Positions 9,114 through 28,224 of a DNA stretch of 61,653 nt are shown piece after piece. A model generated the notes under the pieces. It had not been told where the DNA came from. It saw only the letters and a list, made by a program, of their open reading frames with translations, and ran no database searches. Source of the stretch: an uncultured Gammaproteobacteria bacterium. GTDB taxonomy: Bacteria > Patescibacteriota > Patescibacteriia > UBA10025 > JAHIVO01. The stretch spans positions 1-61,653 of the forward strand of contig CAYPXF010000007.1 in assembly GCA_964415025.1 (NCBI GenBank), given 5' to 3'. Position 1 is the first letter of the stretch. Each line of letters starts with the position of its first letter. The translations under genes and the position numbers were made by a program.

Positions 9114-9455
9114 CTACCGTGCTTTAGTAATCGCATTGGTGATCCAGGATATTACCCATAGAATCACGCCGCCGATCAGGGCGGTGACAAAGCTGTCGAC
9201 CGCAAATCCCTCGATAAATGAAGCAACAAACCAGATGATCAGGGCGTTAATCACCAGCGTGAACAAACCAAGCGTCAGTATGGTAATTGGCAGAGTCAGT
9301 ACGATTAAAATCGGCTTCAGAATAGCGTTCAAAATACCAAGTACCACGGCAACAATCAGCGCGATATAAAACGAACTAACCTCAAATCCCGGCACCAGGT
9401 AAGCTACCATAAGCAGGGCAGCCGCATTGAGTAATAAACGAAGAAGTAAATACAT
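9114..9455 (-). CDS. 4-TM phage holin superfamily IV / YvlD-like membrane protein
   Basis: LNAILKPILIVLTLPITILTLGLFTLVINAL signature. Confidence 0.85.
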   Translation of the reverse strand: MYLLLRLLLNAAALLMVAYLVPGFEVSSFYIALIVAVVLGILNAILKPILIVLTLPITILTLGLFTLVINALIIWFVASFIEGFAVDSFVTALIGGVILWVISWITNAITKAR

Positions 9456-9460
9456 GTGAT

Positions 9461-9570
9461 GAATTCCTAATTACTAATTACTAATTCCTAGTCAAATCCC
9501 AATTTTTTAATGCTTAATTAATAAATTGAATCATTAACAATTTACTAGAAATTAGATATTAGAAATTATT
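9461..9570. repeat. AT-rich heptamer repeats (CTAATTA)n and inverse (TAGAAAT)n
   Basis: ctaatta ctaatta ctaattc at 9467-9487; tagaaat tagatat tagaaat at about 9546-9566. Confidence 0.6.
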
Positions 9571-9583
9571 AATTAATTTTATT

Positions 9584-9658
9584 TACCGCCTACGGGATTC
9601 GAACCCGTGTTACATGGATGAGAACCATGCGTCCTAGGCCGGGCTAGACGAAGGCGGC
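9584..9658 (-). tRNA. tRNA-Glu (anticodon CTC), CCA not encoded
   Basis: Full cloverleaf: acceptor GCCGCCT/AGGCGGT, anticodon arm CATGG-TTCTCAT-CCATG, T arm ACGGG-TTCGAAT-CCCGT. Confidence 0.95.
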
Positions 9659-9666
9659 TTATTAAA

Positions 9667-9735
9667 CGTCCTAGGCCAGGCTACCTGTCCGCCATCGTCT
9701 ACGGCGAAGCCGTGGCAAGCGGAGACATAGGCGGC
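9667..9735 (-). pseudogene. Degenerate 5' fragment (nt 1-29) of tRNA-Glu interrupted by a 40-nt hairpin insert
   Basis: 26/29 nt identical to 9630-9658 once insert 9684-9723 is removed. Confidence 0.75.
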
Positions 9736-9749
9736 CTAAACGTTTCCGT

Positions 9750-9778
9750 ATCATAGCAAATTAAAGACGGTAAATCAA
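9750..9778 (-). promoter_or_regulatory. Promoter for tRNA-Glu (transcript would include the interrupted fragment)
   Basis: TTGATT-17 bp-TATGAT with extended -10 TG. Confidence 0.65.
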
Positions 9779-9826
9779 GCTCGCCTACCCTGGTAAACAC
9801 AGTATCCGGCCCACGACAAAAAACAA

Positions 9827-10006
9827 TTAATGCTTACGGTAAATCTGGAAAAATATCCCGGCGAGGAAGGACAGCATACCTAGCTGCAAATAGAATGAAG
9901 ACGAAATAATAATAAACTCGTTCTGCACCTCGGTGAAAAAGCCGAATATACCGCACATAATACCGAAAACAGCAAATGCTATTGGAACATATTTATTTTT
10001 CAGCAC
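9827..10006 (-). CDS. Small two-TM membrane protein
   Basis: Hydrophobic 59 aa; GTG at 10006 is preceded by SD GAAAGGGGGT (track start 10015 lies within the SD). Confidence 0.6.
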   Translation of the reverse strand: MLKNKYVPIAFAVFGIMCGIFGFFTEVQNEFIIISSSFYLQLGMLSFLAGIFFQIYRKH

Positions 10007-19048: not shown

Positions 19049-20449
19049 TTATTTTTTATCTTGCAGAGAAATATGGAGCTCGTTGAGCTGCGCTGTACTG
19101 ACCGCTGATGGTGACCCGGTCATTGGTTCGCGGTTGTCTCCAGTTTTTGGAAAAGCGACAACTTCACGAACATTAGCTTCATTAAACAAAACCATAAACA
19201 GCCGATCAATACCCGGGGCAATACCCCCATGCGGGGGAACGCCGTAGGAAAATGCCTCCAGCATGTAACCGAACTGCTGTTGTGCTTCCTGGTCTGGAAT
19301 TCCGATCAGCCGGAATATGTTTCGCTGGATATCAGGATCAGTAATACGGATACTGCCGCCGCCAACTTCAAATCCGTTGAGCACCATGTCGTGTTGCCAT
19401 GACCGGACCGCATGCGGATTAGTGTTAAGTTTGGCAATATCTTCATCTTTTGGTGAGGTAAACATGTGATGCGCCGGCGCCAAGTGGCCATTTTCCTTTT
19501 CCGGCTCAAACAACGGCCAGTCAACAACAAAACAAAAAGCTAACTCGTCTGGATTGTCCTTGTCCTGACGCAAGTCAGGTCGGTCAGTGCCATACGTGTC
19601 CATTGCCTCCTGGTACGTGAGTCGCGGCCAGGGACTGGCGCTGATTTTTTTTTCAGGAAATATTTTTTTCACCAGGCTGGTAAACAAATTTTCTGTCAGT
19701 ACTAATATGTCTGCCTGATTCGCAAAAGAGAGTTCAATATCCAGCTGATAAAATTGGTCGGGCGCGCGGTCAGCCCGGGCGTCCTCGTCACGAAAACACG
19801 GTGCTATCTGGAAATACCGTTCAAAACCAGCCACCATCAGCATTTGCTTATACTGCTGCGGAGACTGGGGTAGGGCATAAAATTTTCCCTGGTGCTGGCG
19901 CGACGGAACCAGATAATCACGCGCCCCCTCTGGGGTTGATTTAGCCAGAATAGGTGTTTCTATCTCATAAAAATCATGGCCGTGCAAATAGTCGCGCATG
20001 AATTTGATGGCCTGGGAACGTTTGATAATTTTTTGCTGGTTTTTCTGCCGGCGCAAGTCTAAATAGCGATATGTATAGCGCAACTCTTCACTGGGTTCTT
20101 CTTTCGCTGTCTCCCCTATTTCAAATGGTGTAGTCTTGGCCGTAGACAGAATAGTAAGCCCCTGTGCCTGCAGCTCGATTGTGCCGGTGGGCAAATCTTT
20201 ATTTACTAATTTTTCCGGACGTTTATTTACTAGTCCAGTAACAGCTACTACGTATTCGCCGCGGAGCGACTTGGCCTGTTCGAGTAATTCCTTATCCGCT
20301 GCTAAAAAAACTACTTGGACCACGCCCGTAATATCACGTATGTCCGCGAAGACCATTTTACCCATACGCCGGGCAGTATGGACCCAGCCGCGGATAGTGA
20401 CTGTTTGCGAAACATGCTGGGGAGTGTCAGTAATGCGAGTATGCTTCAT
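19049..20449 (-). CDS. aspS: Aspartyl-tRNA synthetase (bacterial type, GAD domain absent)
   Basis: STPEGARDYLVPSR, QSPQQYKQMLM, FRDED, PPHGGIAPGIDR. Confidence 0.95.
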   Translation of the reverse strand: MKHTRITDTPQHVSQTVTIRGWVHTARRMGKMVFADIRDITGVVQVVFLAADKELLEQAKSLRGEYVVAVTGLVNKRPEKLVNKDLPTGTIELQAQGLTILSTAKTTPFEIGETAKEEPSEELRYTYRYLDLRRQKNQQKIIKRSQAIKFMRDYLHGHDFYEIETPILAKSTPEGARDYLVPSRQHQGKFYALPQSPQQYKQMLMVAGFERYFQIAPCFRDEDARADRAPDQFYQLDIELSFANQADILVLTENLFTSLVKKIFPEKKISASPWPRLTYQEAMDTYGTDRPDLRQDKDNPDELAFCFVVDWPLFEPEKENGHLAPAHHMFTSPKDEDIAKLNTNPHAVRSWQHDMVLNGFEVGGGSIRITDPDIQRNIFRLIGIPDQEAQQQFGYMLEAFSYGVPPHGGIAPGIDRLFMVLFNEANVREVVAFPKTGDNREPMTGSPSAVSTAQLNELHISLQDKK

Positions 20450-21431: not shown

Positions 21432-22724
21432 TTATGGACGTAAACGATTAAGGAGCCGGGGGAAAGGGATAGTCTCCCGCACATGATCCAGGCCGCACAG
21501 CCAGGCGACGGTCCGCTCAAGACCAATGCCAAAACCAGCATGTGGCACTGAACCGTATTTACGCAAATCCAAATACCAGCCAAGTTCATTTTCAGACAGC
21601 TGATGTTCTTTTAGCCGCTGCTGCAATACAGTCGCATCCCAGATGCGCTCTGAACCGCCGATGATTTCACCGTATCCTTCTGGTGCCAACATATCGTTGC
21701 ATAGCGCCAGCTTGGGATCCTCCGGATCAGGCTGCATATAAAACGCTTTTATCGCTGACGGGAAGTGGGTGATAAAAATCGGAGTCTGGTACTCTTTTGT
21801 CAGCAGTGTTTCATCATCACCGCCCAAATCCTCGCCTTCTTTGATATCTGAACCCAGCTCATGCAGTTTTTGTATTGCTTCGCTATACCGTAACCGCGGA
21901 AAATTTCCCCGCGCCTTTGCCAGGAGGCTGGTATCACGCTCCAAAATTTCAAATTCATGGCTGCATGTTGTTAACACCTGTTGTACCACATAGCTGACTA
22001 ATTTTTCCTGAAGTTTCAAACTGTCCTCGTGCTGCATAAACGCGGCTTCAGCATCCAGCATCCAAAACTCCATGAGGTGCCGTCTGGTCTTCGACTTCTC
22101 TGCACGAAACGTAGGGCCAAAATCATATACCTTGCCATGCGCCATAGCCAGCGCCTCTAAATACAGCTGTCCTGATTGGGATAAATACGCAGATTCATCA
22201 AAGTATTCCGTTTCAAACAAGGTAGTCGTACCTTCGCACGATGTCGGGGTCAAAATCGGCGTGTCAGTCAAGACAAATCCCTCTTTCCGGAAAAATTCCC
22301 GCAGGCGCCAGATAATTTCATCCCTGATGCGCACCACAGCCTGCTGTCGCTCTGACCGCAGCCATAAATGCCGGTGATCCAACAAAAAATCCACACCGTG
22401 CTCTTTTTTCCCGAGGGGGTATTCCTCGGCCTGGTGAATCAGCTCAATACCGCTCACCTGCATTTCATAGCCATACGGAGAGCGTTCATCAGCCTGGACC
22501 GTGCCATTCACGCGTACGCTTGATTCAATTGTCAGTTGCTCACAGACAGCCCATGCTGCGTCACTGACTTCATTCTTGGACACGACGGCTTGTATCCGGC
22601 CTGAACCGTCCCGGATTTGCAGAAAATAAATTTTACCAGAGCTACGAAAATTAAAAACCCACCCTTGTAGCAGGACGGGTTTACCAAGATATTTGCTTAT
22701 TTTTTTCAGATGCACTTGCTCCAT
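21432..22724 (-). CDS. asnS: Asparaginyl-tRNA synthetase
   Basis: [47 protein letters not shown]; start placed after the promoter. Confidence 0.95.
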
Positions 22725-22734
22725 AGGTAAAAAT

Positions 22735-22763
22735 ATTATACCTATTTTTGAGTATTTTTGCAA
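22735..22763 (-). promoter_or_regulatory. Sigma70-type promoter of the asnS operon
   Basis: TTGCAA-17 bp-TATAAT. Confidence 0.7.
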
Positions 22764-25518: not shown

Positions 25519-25619
25519 ATAGACTACAGTATACCATATAATTAAACCGTAATAAAAAGAAGTTTAGCGCAAAAAAACACTAAACTTCCTTATGTAAAAC
25601 TGTTAAGATTATTACTAGA

Positions 25620-25973
25620 TCATTCAGTCCACGTATTTGTCTGACCAACCACAAAGATGACAATCGCCCAGGCTAGGAGGACAACGATCAAGCCAACAAC
25701 TGCAGCGGTGATAGTTTTCTTAGCTTTCGCAATTTTATCCTCATTACCACCTGATGTGAGCCAGAGAAAACCACCGTACAGAATGAAAATAACAGCAATC
25801 AATCCCAAGAAACCAAGTACCCACTGAATAATATTCACCACTGTAGATTCTAAATCAGCAGTGCCCAGTCCAAAGGTAGAACCATAATTACCAGTGCCTA
25901 CTTGCGCTAGAGCCACTGCTGGCAGTGTTAATCCAACAAGCGTCAAGGCGCTGCTTTGTAATATTTTTTTCAT
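25620..25973 (-). CDS. CPR-type pilin (VirB2/TrbC-like)
   Basis: Signal peptide then IIQWVLGFLGLIAVIFILYGGFLWLTSGGNEDKIAKAKKTI; SD GAAAGGGGGT. Confidence 0.85.
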   Translation of the reverse strand: MKKILQSSALTLVGLTLPAVALAQVGTGNYGSTFGLGTADLESTVVNIIQWVLGFLGLIAVIFILYGGFLWLTSGGNEDKIAKAKKTITAAVVGLIVVLLAWAIVIFVVGQTNTWTE

Positions 25974-26010
25974 GCGACACCCCCTTTCATTATCCCGTTA
26001 CACGGACGGA

Positions 26011-26100
26011 TTAGAGCTTTTTTTTAGTATAAAGATAAAAAAACGCCATAAATATTATAAGCAGTAATAGGATAAATATTCCGCCGCCGCTTAGTTCCAT
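26011..26100 (-). CDS. 29-aa single-pass membrane microprotein, missing from the ORF track
   Basis: MELSGGGIFILLLLIIFMAFFYLYTKKKL; lies between the promoter and the pilin gene. Confidence 0.55.
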   Translation of the reverse strand: MELSGGGIFILLLLIIFMAFFYLYTKKKL

Positions 26101-26133
26101 AATGCTAGATTATCACTAATTATGCTTATTCTT

Positions 26134-26161
26134 AGTATAGCAAAAAAAGCATTTTAATCAA
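26134..26161 (-). promoter_or_regulatory. Promoter of the microprotein-pilin unit
   Basis: TTGATT-16 bp-TATACT with extended -10 TG. Confidence 0.6.
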
Positions 26162-26197
26162 TAGCCGGCATATAAACCCAACTACTCTGCAGCACGC

Positions 26198-26270
26198 AAA
26201 AACCTTCTCATCTTTTGGGAAGGTTTTTAATGGTGGGTCGTACAGGTCTCGAACCTGTGACACCCTGCTT
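26198..26270. repeat. 73-bp direct repeat, copy 1 (terminator + tRNA-Lys 3' half)
   Basis: Identical to 26590-26662; similarity resumes at 26295-26312 and 26338-26350 after two insertions. Confidence 0.95.
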
Positions 26271-26350
26271 TACCCCGCCTGAATAGGCGGGGTAAAAAGG
26301 CAGGTGCTCTACTTCACCCCGCCCTTCGTGGGCGGGGCAAGCTGAGCTAA
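26231..26350 (-). pseudogene. Pseudo-tRNA-Lys: nt 7-76 with hairpin insertions in the anticodon loop and D loop
   Basis: Lacks acceptor-stem nt 1-6; inserts at 26271-26294 and 26313-26337. Confidence 0.85.
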
Positions 26351-26575
26351 TTTACTTTTGTATTTACGATTTTTCTTTTTAAGCCACATTTCATGTTTTC
26401 TGGCCTCTCTATAACTTTGATGTCCCTTAACATACACAAGGGTATATGGTCTTTGCCGAGCAGTAAACCAATATTTACCCGAGTTATGCTCTCGTAACCT
26501 TTTGATCGGATTAACAGATATGCCTACATAGTAGGATCTATTTTTCACACAGCAAATTAAATATGTATAAATCAT
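26309..26575 (-). CDS. Stand-alone GIY-YIG nuclease (YazA/UPF0213/Slx1-like)
   Basis: YTYLI..SYYVGIS (GIY-YIG equivalent), KRLREHNSG (Arg, His), EARKHE (Glu). Confidence 0.9.
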   Translation of the reverse strand: MIYTYLICCVKNRSYYVGISVNPIKRLREHNSGKYWFTARQRPYTLVYVKGHQSYREARKHEMWLKKKNRKYKSKLAQLAPPTKGGVK

Positions 26576-26589
26576 AGCGCTAAAACAAT

Positions 26590-26620
26590 AAAAACCTTCT
26601 CATCTTTTGGGAAGGTTTTT
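26590..26620 (-). terminator. Intrinsic terminator after tRNA-Lys (duplicated at 26198-26228)
   Basis: AAAAACCTTC...GAAGGTTTTT. Confidence 0.75.
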
Positions 26621-26662
26621 AATGGTGGGTCGTACAGGTCTCGAACCTGTGACACCCTGCTT
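26590..26662. repeat. 73-bp direct repeat, copy 2
   Basis: Identical to 26198-26270. Confidence 0.95.
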
Positions 26663-26698
26663 AAAAGGCAGGTGCTCTACCAACTGAGCTAACGACCC
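26623..26698 (-). tRNA. tRNA-Lys (anticodon TTT), CCA encoded
   Basis: GGGTCGTTAGCTCAGTTGGTAGAGCACCTGCCTTTTAAGCAGGGTGTCACAGGTTCGAGACCTGTACGACCCACCA, 76 nt. Confidence 0.97.
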
Positions 26699-26726
26699 AT
26701 ATACATCATGATTCTAGATGTAGCCA

Positions 26727-26777
26727 ATAGTAACAAATAAATACTAATTTGACAAGGCCATACAATATGAGTATATG
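26727..26777. promoter_or_regulatory. Divergent overlapping promoters for tRNA-Lys and dnaB
   Basis: Minus: TTGTCA-17-TACTAT (26755 to 26727); plus: TTGACA (26749)-17-TATATG. Confidence 0.55.
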
Positions 26778-26856
26778 GTGGACAAAATGTGTATAGACAG
26801 TGCTAAAAACAGCAGTTGAAAAAATTTAATAACCAGAGTACAATACATACACTATT

Positions 26857-28224
26857 ATGCGAAAAAAGGACGCCTCCATAGAAAAATTACCCCCGCAAAA
26901 CCTAGAAGCCGAGACCTCATTGCTCGGTGCTTTGCTGATAGATAAAAACGCCATTACCAAGATAGCTGACATTATCCGTCCCGATGATTTTTATAGGGAT
27001 AGTAATGGCATGATTTATGAAGCAATGGTTGATCTATATGAGCAGCGAGAGCCTATTGATGTTGTCTCACTGTCAAATCGCTTGAGTGAATGTAAGCAGC
27101 TGGAAACTATCGGCGGTCGGAGCGCCCTGGCCGGTCTGGCGAATTCTGTTCCCAGTTCATCGCATATTGTCACCTATGCAAATATTATCCAGAAAAAAGC
27201 AACCTTGCGCAGACTCTTGTCAGTGGCTTCAGAAATTACTGATCTAGGCTACCAGGAAACAGACGAGATTGAGGTGTTACTGGATAAGGCCGAACAGCAG
27301 ATTTTCGGCGTGTCCCAAAAATACCTGAAGCAAAACTTTATCCCCATCAAATCCGTGCTGACTGATGCCTTTGACCGGATTGATGAGTTGCATCGTGAAT
27401 CAGGCAAACTCCGCGGCATCCCGACAGGATTTACTGAAATGGACAATCTCTTGGCAGGCTTACAAAAATCTGACCTCGTCATCTTGGCCGCACGCCCCTC
27501 ACTCGGCAAAACTACCCTGGCCCTCGATATCGCCCGCCAAGTTGCCATTGATAGCAAAATACCGGTCGGCATCTTCAGCCTGGAAATGTCTAAGGAACAA
27601 TTAGTCGACCGAATGCTCTGTGCCCAGGCACATGTTGACCTGTGGCGGATGCGTACCGGACGGCTGTCTGACGACGAGGACTTCAGCAGTATTGGCAATG
27701 CTATGGGAATCCTGTCCGAAGCGCCGATTTACATTGACGATTCAGCAAATTCTACGATTATGGAAATACGGACTAAGGCACGGCGCCTGCAGGCTGAACA
27801 CAATCTAGGGCTCATCATCCTGGATTATCTCCAGCTAATGCAGGGCGACACTTATACTGACAACCGCGTACAGGAAATCAGCCAGATTACCCGTTCACTA
27901 AAAGGTATTGCCCGTGAGCTGAACATACCCATCCTGGCTCTATCACAGCTGTCGCGTGCCGTAGAATCCCGCACCCCGCCGGTGCCTAAGCTGGCTGACC
28001 TGCGCGAATCCGGCTCTATTGAACAGGATGCTGACGTGGTGATGTTTATCTACCGAGAGGCAATGTATAAGAAAGATATCGACGCTGAACGCAAGCATAT
28101 TTCAGAAATTCATGTTGCCAAACACCGCAATGGACCGACTGGTGTTATCCAGCTGTACTTCGACGAAAACCGCGTCAGTTTCAAAAACCTAGAAAAGAAA
28201 ATTCAATCAGAACCTTCATTTTAG
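26857..28224 (+). CDS. dnaB: Replicative DNA helicase
   Basis: PQNLEAE, ARPSLGKT, LDYLQL, LRESGSIEQDAD, KHRNGPTG. Confidence 0.97.
   Translation: MRKKDASIEKLPPQNLEAETSLLGALLIDKNAITKIADIIRPDDFYRDSNGMIYEAMVDLYEQREPIDVVSLSNRLSECKQLETIGGRSALAGLANSVPSSSHIVTYANIIQKKATLRRLLSVASEITDLGYQETDEIEVLLDKAEQQIFGVSQKYLKQNFIPIKSVLTDAFDRIDELHRESGKLRGIPTGFTEMDNLLAGLQKSDLVILAARPSLGKTTLALDIARQVAIDSKIPVGIFSLEMSKEQLVDRMLCAQAHVDLWRMRTGRLSDDEDFSSIGNAMGILSEAPIYIDDSANSTIMEIRTKARRLQAEHNLGLIILDYLQLMQGDTYTDNRVQEISQITRSLKGIARELNIPILALSQLSRAVESRTPPVPKLADLRESGSIEQDADVVMFIYREAMYKKDIDAERKHISEIHVAKHRNGPTGVIQLYFDENRVSFKNLEKKIQSEPSF

Follow-up and report, generated by a model that had tools for sequence, protein, structure and literature searches.

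SegB is a free-standing GIY-YIG homing endonuclease of the tRNA cluster of T-even phages and makes double-strand breaks in tRNA-containing DNA (PMC13096335). In phage T6, SegB-induced tandem tRNA-segB repeats have formed through microhomology repair (PMC13096335). Ribosomal RNA (rRNA) genes of the Candidate Phyla Radiation (CPR) carry insertions at the tops or bases of stem-loops; some encode GIY-YIG proteins, and these resemble neither group I nor group II introns, while tRNA genes are not mentioned anywhere in the paper concerned (PMC11270868). A 2006 survey of GIY-YIG proteins gives, as its only link to tRNA, an Slx1-like domain fused to a TrmH-type tRNA G18 methyltransferase, which is a lead rather than a test. 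The subject here is a 69-bp feature at positions 9667–9735 of a 61,653-nt Patescibacteria contig (CAYPXF010000007.1), the whole of which is called the window. The feature is a half copy of the adjacent tRNA-Glu(CTC) gene that is split by a 40-nt hairpin insert. It is read here, with a little better than even confidence, as a relic, lacking an open reading frame (ORF), of a GIY-YIG cassette of a self-healing kind, one that would break the D-loop of a tRNA gene and restore the gene alongside. As such the feature is itself degenerate, and its interest is as a pointer to a family of tRNA-nested GIY-YIG cassettes. No description of small GIY-YIG cassettes nested at tRNA genes was found in the literature searched, and absence from that literature is not proof of novelty.

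Like segB, the cassette ORFs adjoin tRNA genes and are not housed in an intron. SegB is the longer protein (a 28-residue C-terminal truncation is reported for it), whereas the cassettes encode a bare UPF0213/Slx1 domain of 81–91 aa. They also differ from SegB in lying in cellular Patescibacteria genomes, within a single tRNA transcription unit, and in being accompanied by a broken, partial copy of the tRNA as well as by fixed GC-rich hairpins. The CPR rRNA insertions share the bacterial group and the interruption of structural RNA genes, but they lie inside the rRNA and need removal at the RNA level; here restoration is at the DNA level and the broken copy stays outside the mature RNA. Integrase attachment (att) sites are alike in their tRNA target, in inserted DNA that supplies the missing part of the gene so that it remains intact, and in the partial copy at the other end. 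However, no integrase occurs here, the element is 0.3 kb or, at the window tRNA-Glu, absent, the breakpoint is in the D-loop, and partial copies are 5' as well as 3' and carry hairpin inserts. Repetitive extragenic palindromic (REP) sequences with their RAYT genes, and other small palindromic repeats (e.g., PMC3733652), likewise join GC-rich hairpins of 20–40 nt to a small nuclease-type gene; in contrast, the window has no dispersed high-copy family, the nuclease is GIY-YIG rather than a Y1 transposase, and the hairpins occur only in tRNA fragments. Archaeal split or intron-containing tRNAs and bacterial group I tRNA introns resemble the present loci in loop interruption and short hairpin-forming inserts, but the interrupted copies here are incomplete and each stands beside an intact copy.

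The window has two tRNA genes, tRNA-Glu(CTC) at 9658–9584 and tRNA-Lys(UUU) at 26698–26623 (ARAGORN, Rfam). Both are on the minus strand, on which all coordinates for the two regions are read. The tRNA-Glu unit consists of:

9778–9750, minus strand: promoter-like site TTGATT-17 nt-TATGAT of the tRNA-Glu unit (consensus scan)
9749–9736, minus strand: short leader ACGGAAACGTTTAG, the ACGTTTA of which reappears ahead of the intact tRNA-Glu (sequence)
9735–9723, minus strand: part A', GCCGCCTATGTCT, a copy of tRNA-Glu nt 1–13, 11/13 identical (alignment)
9722–9683, minus strand: 40-nt insert CCGCTTGCCACGGCTTCGCCGTAGACGATGGCGGACAGGT at the D-loop break (sequence)
9682–9667, minus strand: part B', AGCCTGGCCTAGGACG, a copy of tRNA-Glu nt 14–29, 15/16 identical (repeat spacing 37 nt)
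9666–9659, minus strand: 8-nt spacer TTTAATAA between half copy and gene (sequence)
9658–9584, minus strand: intact tRNA-Glu(CTC) with a G1-U72 pair and without encoded CCA (ARAGORN; Rfam RF00005, 55.6 bits)

The half copy matches tRNA-Glu nt 1–29 at 26/29 positions. When the upstream 150 nt are aligned to the tRNA locally and with gaps, the score is 33.05, compared with 14.1 ± 2.3 for shuffled sequences (z = 8.1; 0/5000 as good). The duplication 8 nt upstream of the gene that was reported in a preliminary description of this DNA is thereby upheld, and the other descriptive statements made there hold as well. Part A' comprises a decoy 5' acceptor strand and the 5' D-stem strand. The insert may be placed after C12 or after T13 and has no target duplication, also as previously stated. 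The repeat unit is exactly 37 nt (TTTAATAA plus tRNA nt 1–29), with spacings of 37 nt for B' and 77 nt for A', and both unit junctions read ACG/TTTA (the slash marks the junction), with ACG in common. Such a head-to-tail repeat with junction microhomology is the signature of simple tandem duplication; it fits a cassette origin and local replication error alike because a nuclease-induced break can be repaired in this way (PMC13096335). The promoter-like site is 5' of the half copy, which is therefore predicted to lie within the transcribed leader of tRNA-Glu, between promoter and tRNA, as originally proposed; an equivalent -35/-10 arrangement precedes tRNA-Glu in the syntenic relatives L081, L162 and L168. 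Rfam searches of the whole window at gathering thresholds, and of 9300–10000 at permissive thresholds, returned the two tRNAs alone and no intron family.

The G1-U72 wobble at the top of the tRNA-Glu acceptor stem also occurs in L081, L162, L029 and L168, and in the window CCA is encoded in tRNA-Lys and not in tRNA-Glu. The spacer from tRNA-Glu to a holin-like gene is taken up by an AT-rich imperfect inverted repeat (9459–9577) with arms of 53 nt that are 72% complementary; a terminator-like site was looked for in this spacer and none was found.

The 40-nt insert is partly tRNA-derived. It opens with a 5' part and an inner hairpin, ACGGC-TTC-GCCGT; next come a 3' half, GCCG---TAGACGATGGCGG, that is an inverted copy of tRNA-Glu nt 2–21 with one substitution and a 3-nt gap, and then ACAGGT. 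The inverted match scores 23 against 13.0 ± 2.4 for shuffled sequences (p about 0.002), and it fits the 5' end of the intact gene better than that of the half copy. The half copy and insert fold on themselves because the insert holds this inverted copy of the tRNA 5' end: the predicted hairpin spans 82 nt (9745–9664; -37.1 kcal/mol, z = -3.24, 0/200 shuffles as stable), and within it outer CCGC/GCGG pairs enclose the inner hairpin, in agreement with the fold first proposed. The inverted copy looks like the product of fold-back synthesis at a broken end. A T-arm origin of the insert was also considered, from a direct match (CACGGCTTCG----CCGTAGACG, p about 0.015), and was rejected as weaker than the inverted-copy match. 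No second copy of the insert was found in the 61-kb window, and comparison with the tRNA-Lys hairpins described below gave no sequence in common beyond CCGC/GCGG.

The window organism has a GAPDH that is at best 68% identical to any on record, and no close relatives were found in the collections searched. GAPDH-based scans of genome contigs and metagenome contigs gave proteins 48–60% identical only; among the 21 top GAPDH loci scanned for tRNAs (20 tRNAs in 1.37 Mb), none had tRNA-Glu synteny except the Kerfeldbacteria locus L029. The useful relatives were reached by a homologous-protein search and then through the contigs that encode those proteins. Several of them (GAPDH 64–68%) keep the order ScpA-ScpB-peptidase S11-TIM-aldolase-GAPDH-small ORF-tRNA-Glu-holin-like. 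The loci that bear on the tRNA-Glu feature are:

L081: promoter, 29-nt leader, tRNA-Glu and nothing more (an empty site)
L162: promoter, leader, GCCGCCTTCGTCT (nt 1–13), 30 nt of hairpins, AGTCTGGC (nt 14–21), 81-aa GIY-YIG ORF, GACGTTTAGCACTTTTCGT, intact tRNA-Glu
L175: the L162-type layout (fragment, hairpins, GIY-YIG ORF, tRNA) at tRNA-Glu(TTC)
L029 (Kerfeldbacteria): the L162-type layout, with fragment GCCGCCTTCGTCT cut after nt 13 and an ORF that reads into the intact tRNA
L168: no ORF; promoter, leader, GGCGCTTTCGTC, 41-nt insert, AGCCCGGCCAG, a second and different 5' fragment (nt 1–37), intact gene
L176 and L177: the layout fragment, hairpins, ORF, tRNA at tRNA-Ser

The 5' tRNA-Glu fragments end after nt 13 in L162 and L029 and after nt 12 in L168 and L175, so that, with the window, the break after nt 12/13 occurs in five lineages, which favors a cassette. 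In all four relatives the fragment is followed by a GC-rich hairpin insert and is placed between the conserved promoter and the intact tRNA-Glu. The gap between fragment and gene is occupied in L162, L175 and L029 by a GIY-YIG ORF of 81–91 aa with 52–56% mutual identity (Pfam GIY-YIG 7.6e-18 for L162), an association that points the same way. Occupied and empty alleles can be compared directly, which lends further support: the flanks of L081 and L162 are mostly identical outside the insertion, and L162 has a surplus of ~330 nt at tRNA-Glu nt 13/14 that is bracketed by repeated CGTGCCGCCTTCGTCT. The leader motif GACGTTTA(G) stands before the intact tRNA on the cassette side of L162, whereas neither L081 nor L162 has it in its native leader; in the window it precedes both Glu copies, again as expected of a former cassette. 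GACGTTTAG is also present ahead of the intact tRNA-Glu on the L162 cassette side. The window and L168 inserts occupy the same site, are nearly equal in length (40 and 41 nt), both terminate in CAGGT and have a GCTTCGC core in common (global alignment p about 0.004), and their outer stems have one possible compensatory change (CCGC/GCGG vs CCCC/GGGG, by eye). A related insert therefore exists outside the window, and structures of this kind occur in relatives at tRNA-Glu, tRNA-Ser, tRNA-Lys, tRNA-Phe and tRNA-Thr; the outcome that the preliminary description had named as its refutation, a unique insert with nothing comparable at other tRNA loci, thus did not occur.

Further tRNA pieces surround these loci. 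L168 (4775–5095) has in a row fragment 1 (nt 1–12, insert, nt 14–24), fragment 2 (nt 1–37, with a different acceptor stem) and the intact gene, which suggests serial replacement among three tRNA-Glu alleles at one locus; downstream is a T-arm-like fragment, CGGGTTC...AAATCCCG, with its T loop filled by two hairpins. 3' partial tRNA-Glu copies (17–22 nt, T loop plus acceptor strand) lie 105–140 nt 3' of the intact gene in L029 (5060–5225) and L165 (5425–5580), with GC-rich hairpins between or after them (TCCGCCTCAGGCGGA in L165). In L175 (1440–1467) and L029 (4960–5005) the GIY-YIG ORF enters the intact tRNA-Glu by ~25 nt and stops at a TAG in the D-loop; the C-terminus (..PSS..) of these proteins is thus encoded by the tRNA gene.

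A hairpin-bearing copy accompanies the second tRNA gene of the window as well, which makes good the parallel that had been drawn with tRNA-Lys. Its parts are:

26698–26623, minus strand: intact tRNA-Lys(UUU) with encoded CCA (ARAGORN, Rfam)
26622–26590, minus strand: 33-nt terminator block after tRNA-Lys (sequence)
26575–26309, minus strand: intact ORF for an 88-aa GIY-YIG endonuclease, between the two tRNA-Lys copies (translation, Pfam)
26350–26231, minus strand: partial tRNA-Lys copy, nt 7–76 (sequence), followed by a second identical terminator (by eye)
26350–26338, minus strand: D-arm-like module TTAGCTCAGCTTG in the partial tRNA-Lys (sequence)
26337–26317, minus strand: hairpin 1, CCCCGCCCACGAAGGGCGGGG, in the D-loop of the partial copy, then TGAA (sequence)
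26312–26295, minus strand: tRNA-Lys nt 19–36 in the partial copy (sequence)
26294–26271, minus strand: hairpin 2, a perfect 24-nt hairpin between nt 36 and 37 (sequence)
26270–26231, minus strand: tRNA-Lys nt 37–76 in the partial copy (sequence)

The partial and intact tRNA-Lys are 100% identical over 18 + 40 tRNA nt. Hairpin 2 has a unique placement (nt 36/37) and, by inspection, no target duplication. The partial copy has a predicted fold of -69.8 kcal/mol (z = -7.9) in which the D and anticodon arms are closed into long helices, and no perfect GC-rich hairpin with a stem of 7 bp or more, apart from its two, lies outside the long ORFs of the window. The 270-nt interval between the tRNA copies is coding rather than spacer. 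Its ORF begins 14 nt past the terminator block, where no recognizable ribosome-binding site was seen, and its 3' end extends through the module TTAGCTCAGCTTG and hairpin 1. The protein has the GIY-YIG catalytic domain (PF01541, 2e-14), is 40% identical to the L162 tRNA-Glu cassette protein (tblastn, E 6.5e-12), and has as its nearest solved structures the UPF0213 proteins 1YWL and 1ZG2, then SLX1. Membership of the cassette ORFs in this UPF0213/SLX1 branch of GIY-YIG nucleases also favors the cassette reading. The exact protein was absent among the matches in the protein-collection search, so the ORF may have escaped gene calling. Both tRNA genes of the window thus have hairpin-bearing fragments and one, tRNA-Lys, has a complete cassette, which adds to the case for a cassette at tRNA-Glu. 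The companion of these structures is a small GIY-YIG ORF such as that at 26575–26309, which the preliminary description had overlooked. Its suggestion that one process acted at both genes holds for the recurrent break in a tRNA loop with an intact copy alongside; the agent was misidentified. In annotation, the ORF at 26575–26309 and both tRNA fragments merit marking.

Elsewhere in the window, two paralogous class II aminoacyl-tRNA synthetase genes of Asp/Asn/Lys type (19049–20449 and 21432–22763) lie ~1 kb apart.

Homologues of the Lys ORF at 55–74% identity come from sources with names that indicate CPR groups (e.g., Berkelbacteria, Nomurabacteria), and the three that were looked up (3/3) directly follow a tRNA gene. 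Three loci of this kind were compared:

L169: tRNA-Lys cassette, with P-type ATPase and pilin genes in common with the window
L170: tRNA-Phe cassette
L173: tRNA-Thr cassette

All three have a common 3' module, TTAGCTCAGCTTG, CCCCGCC, a variable loop of 7–10 nt, GGCGGGG, TGAA and GTAGAGC, and beyond it comes the remainder of the local tRNA. The junction falls at the common D-arm sequence TAGCTCAG..GTAGAGC in the Lys, Phe and Thr cassettes alike. The stem of the module hairpin does not vary, whereas its loop and the site of the stop codon do, so the hairpin is evidently kept at the nucleic-acid level. More hairpins of the CCCCGCC stem type lie in the anticodon loop (window), in the variable loop (L173) and in place of the T arm (L169). 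The 5' acceptor strand of L173 is fully paired with the 3' strand of the downstream fragment, whereas against the 3' strand of the upstream copy it has a T-T mismatch, the pattern expected if the intact gene is a chimera of native and cassette sequence, which also speaks for a cassette. In L170 and L173 the ORF begins with an ATG 1–2 nt past the tRNA 3' end, which suggests a leaderless mRNA freed by tRNA processing. The ORFs form two clades that match two layouts. The 'upstream' layout of the Glu and Ser loci (43–58% identity within) runs promoter, 5' fragment, hairpins, ORF, intact tRNA; the 'downstream' layout of the Lys, Phe and Thr loci (57–74% within) runs intact tRNA, ORF, hairpin-bearing 3' fragment. 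Identity between clades is 28–45%. All CPR-type homologues with readable DNA (L162, L169, L170, L173, L175–L177 and L029) are at a tRNA gene with a fragment, so that in Patescibacteria this break-and-restore pattern accompanies small GIY-YIG (UPF0213/Slx1-like) ORFs nested at tRNA genes, in keeping with a cassette. Among viral contigs, TAGCTCAGCTTGCCCCGCC had 0 matches and GRCAGGTAGCCYGGCC had 21, all of them chance matches in unrelated coding DNA.

Several details of these loci are recorded in their own right. In L169 the tRNA-Lys cassette block is inverted relative to the flanking pilin and P-type ATPase genes when compared with window positions 25600–26900, and a 93-nt unit (spacer, hairpin and TACGACCCACCA) lies on both sides of the cassette. 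Directly 3' of the tRNA-Thr GIY-YIG cassette is a '23S rRNA intervening sequence protein' gene (PF05635; L172–L174, 1919–2266); such genes are a further type known to occur in insertions of structural RNA genes. In L171 a run of N falls exactly in the D-arm of the upstream tRNA-Phe copy (~1440–1460) of a locus that is otherwise identical to L170; short-read assemblies appear to break at the tRNA segments that cassettes duplicate.

A cassette would account for these observations as follows. The nuclease would cut the conserved D-loop region of an unoccupied tRNA gene, and repair would copy in the ORF together with the missing piece of tRNA, such that the tRNA gene stays functional and the ORF could be expressed from the tRNA promoter. 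The displaced piece would persist as a fragment in which a hairpin at the break destroys the target site. For the window, the tRNA-Glu gene would have been broken at the start of the D-loop (after nt 13) and the intact gene restored adjacent to it; the 69-bp feature would be the displaced 5' part (nt 1–29) of tRNA-Glu(CTC), left in the pre-tRNA leader. The 40-nt insert may be a patch at the break that pairs with the decoy acceptor strand and closes the fragment into the 82-nt leader hairpin. The ORF may have been lost by deletion between ...GGACG of the fragment and GACG of the GACGTTTA leader, which would give the present TTTAATAA junction; or a nuclease like that encoded at tRNA-Lys may have cut the gene in trans, with microhomology repair. 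The break lies at a fixed position in both groups (nt 12/13 in the five tRNA-Glu lineages, TAGCTCAG..GTAGAGC for Lys, Phe and Thr), L081 and L162 provide the empty and occupied alleles, and the GIY-YIG ORF is inside the element at tRNA-Lys, L162, L175 and L029. The cassette account is the simplest one that covers all loci.

Several observations weigh against it. The window tRNA-Glu locus has no ORF or ORF remnant (a translated search gave the Lys ORF only, and the gap is 8 nt), so its link to cassettes rests on homology of architecture. Its structure can also be produced without a cassette, given an exact 37-nt tandem unit, ACG microhomology and a tRNA-templated insert. The intact tRNA-Glu keeps the presumed D-loop target, which leaves the immunity of an occupied allele unexplained. 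In L168 the insert does not repeat its own tRNA in inverted form, so the inserts may not all have a single origin. Equilibrium folding gives no clear sign that the insert hairpin protects tRNA folding. In the window the predicted probability of the true acceptor stem is 0.82 with the insert, the value also obtained when the duplication is absent; it falls to 0.60 if the insert is removed and to ~0 if the duplicate is pristine. However, 41% of shuffled inserts of 40 nt equal the real one, and in L162 the decoy pairing still dominates at equilibrium. The sample of loci is small and was reached via the ORFs themselves. Finally, there is a sole exception to the tRNA association: L199, a GC-rich non-CPR contig, has a distant homologue among REP-like hairpins and no tRNA. 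There (L199 660–1240, also L200–L202), a 93-aa GIY-YIG homologue lies between inverted copies of a REP-like hairpin, GGGTCCCTGCTTTCGCAGGGAC, with solo copies nearby and an IS110-family transposase gene as neighbor. This hints at a broader tie between this GIY-YIG branch and GC-rich hairpins.

An origin by local replication errors, without any endonuclease, would require a slipped-strand duplication of the 37-nt unit (TTTAATAA plus nt 1–29) between ACG microhomologies, followed by a template switch at the D-loop palindromes CCGG, GGCC and CCTAGG, within or between copies, that writes inverted nt 2–21 into the upstream copy. This account draws on the same exact spacings (37 nt for B', 77 nt for A'), paired ACG/TTTA junctions, tRNA-templated insert and missing ORF at the window tRNA-Glu. 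We nevertheless consider it unlikely, although it deserves to be taken seriously: four further lineages have the break at nt 12/13, and a GIY-YIG ORF fills the gap in three of these; the window and L168 inserts can be aligned; the window has the cassette-type leader motif; and both tRNA genes of the contig are affected, one with an ORF. The agent named in the preliminary description, a short palindromic element, leads to a related proposal, in which non-autonomous REP-like elements or miniature inverted-repeat transposable elements (MITEs), perhaps mobilized in trans by a GIY-YIG nuclease, hit tRNA-like loops and survive only in redundant partial copies. Stems of the type CCCCGC(C)/(G)GCGGGG with differing loops do occupy D-loop, anticodon-loop, variable-loop and T-arm positions (window, L169, L170, L173); TCCGCC-N3-GGCGGA occurs in L165, L167/L168 and L177, with one further match (L120) in 1.66 Mb scanned; and the L199 ORF between inverted REP-like hairpins is of the kind expected, which counts against the cassette. 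The multiple dispersed copies that mark REP or MITE families are missing within 61 kb, however, where the Glu insert is unique and CCCCGCC..GGCGGGG hairpins are confined to the Lys fragment. Neither a target-site duplication nor a flanking tag (TA, GTAG, CGTC) was seen by inspection at the Glu insert or Lys hairpin 2. The Glu insert is unlike the Lys hairpins, with half of it inverted tRNA nt 2–21, and Lys-type hairpin 1 is a fixed part of the ORF 3' end rather than an independent insertion. The palindromic agent is not sustained by these results, and mobile palindromes are judged a slightly poorer prospect than replication error.

The leader hairpin could instead be a selected feature of the pre-tRNA. 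It might serve in processing or stability, or might insulate the tRNA 3' end from pairing with the decoy acceptor strand. Agreement with this idea comes from the unusual stability of the 82-nt hairpin (z = -3.24), from the acceptor-stem probabilities given above and from the L162 and L175 inserts, which hold a stretch complementary to their own decoy acceptor strand (by eye) that is paired in predicted folds. Selection for a hairpin is nonetheless improbable as an explanation: 41% of shuffled inserts do as well, the L162 equilibrium model has no protection, the L081 and L165 leaders have neither a 5' half copy nor a hairpin, and it would account for maintenance and not for origin. Inverted-repeat chimeras are typical artefacts of some amplification methods, and a chimeric fold-back of assembly or amplification was weighed accordingly. 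Homologous structures in independent assemblies from other samples oppose it, and the Glu copies are not fresh, because the direct copies have 3 differences in 29 positions, and the inverted copy has one substituted base and a 3-nt gap; an artefact is hardly credible. A tRNA intron or split tRNA was rejected, because the host copies are truncated (Glu nt 1–29 only; Lys without nt 1–6), Rfam gave no intron match, and in the predicted folds, by inspection, uninterrupted helices run across the insert boundaries, with no bulge-helix-bulge there. An integrase att site was likewise rejected because an element body is missing: the copies are separated by 8 nt at Glu and by a 267-nt GIY-YIG ORF at Lys. 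No tyrosine or serine recombinase was seen among the proteins scanned around either tRNA locus.

If the cassette reading of the Glu feature is extended to the whole group of loci, Patescibacteria may contain an undescribed class of miniature 'cleave-and-restore' cassettes, a proposal that we hold with slightly less than even confidence. Such cassettes, each with an 81–91 aa Slx1/UPF0213-type GIY-YIG gene, would invade tRNA D-loops, rebuild the gene, be expressed from the tRNA promoter and leave hairpin-closed fragments, of which the window tRNA-Glu feature would be one without its ORF. Very small Patescibacteria genomes probably carry few spare tRNA copies. If the proposal is true, tRNA genes of very small genomes would be homing sites for a minimal selfish nuclease gene, and the host gene would be spared by partial duplication and not by splicing, a third route beside introns/inteins and integrase att sites. 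In metagenome-assembled genomes, cassettes would also account for the odd hairpins and stray pieces of tRNA close to tRNA genes, and for assembly breaks there. The UPF0213 branch of GIY-YIG proteins, which is widespread but of obscure function, would gain a concrete role and a predicted substrate, and these loci could serve as a natural model for the splitting or rearrangement of tRNA genes.

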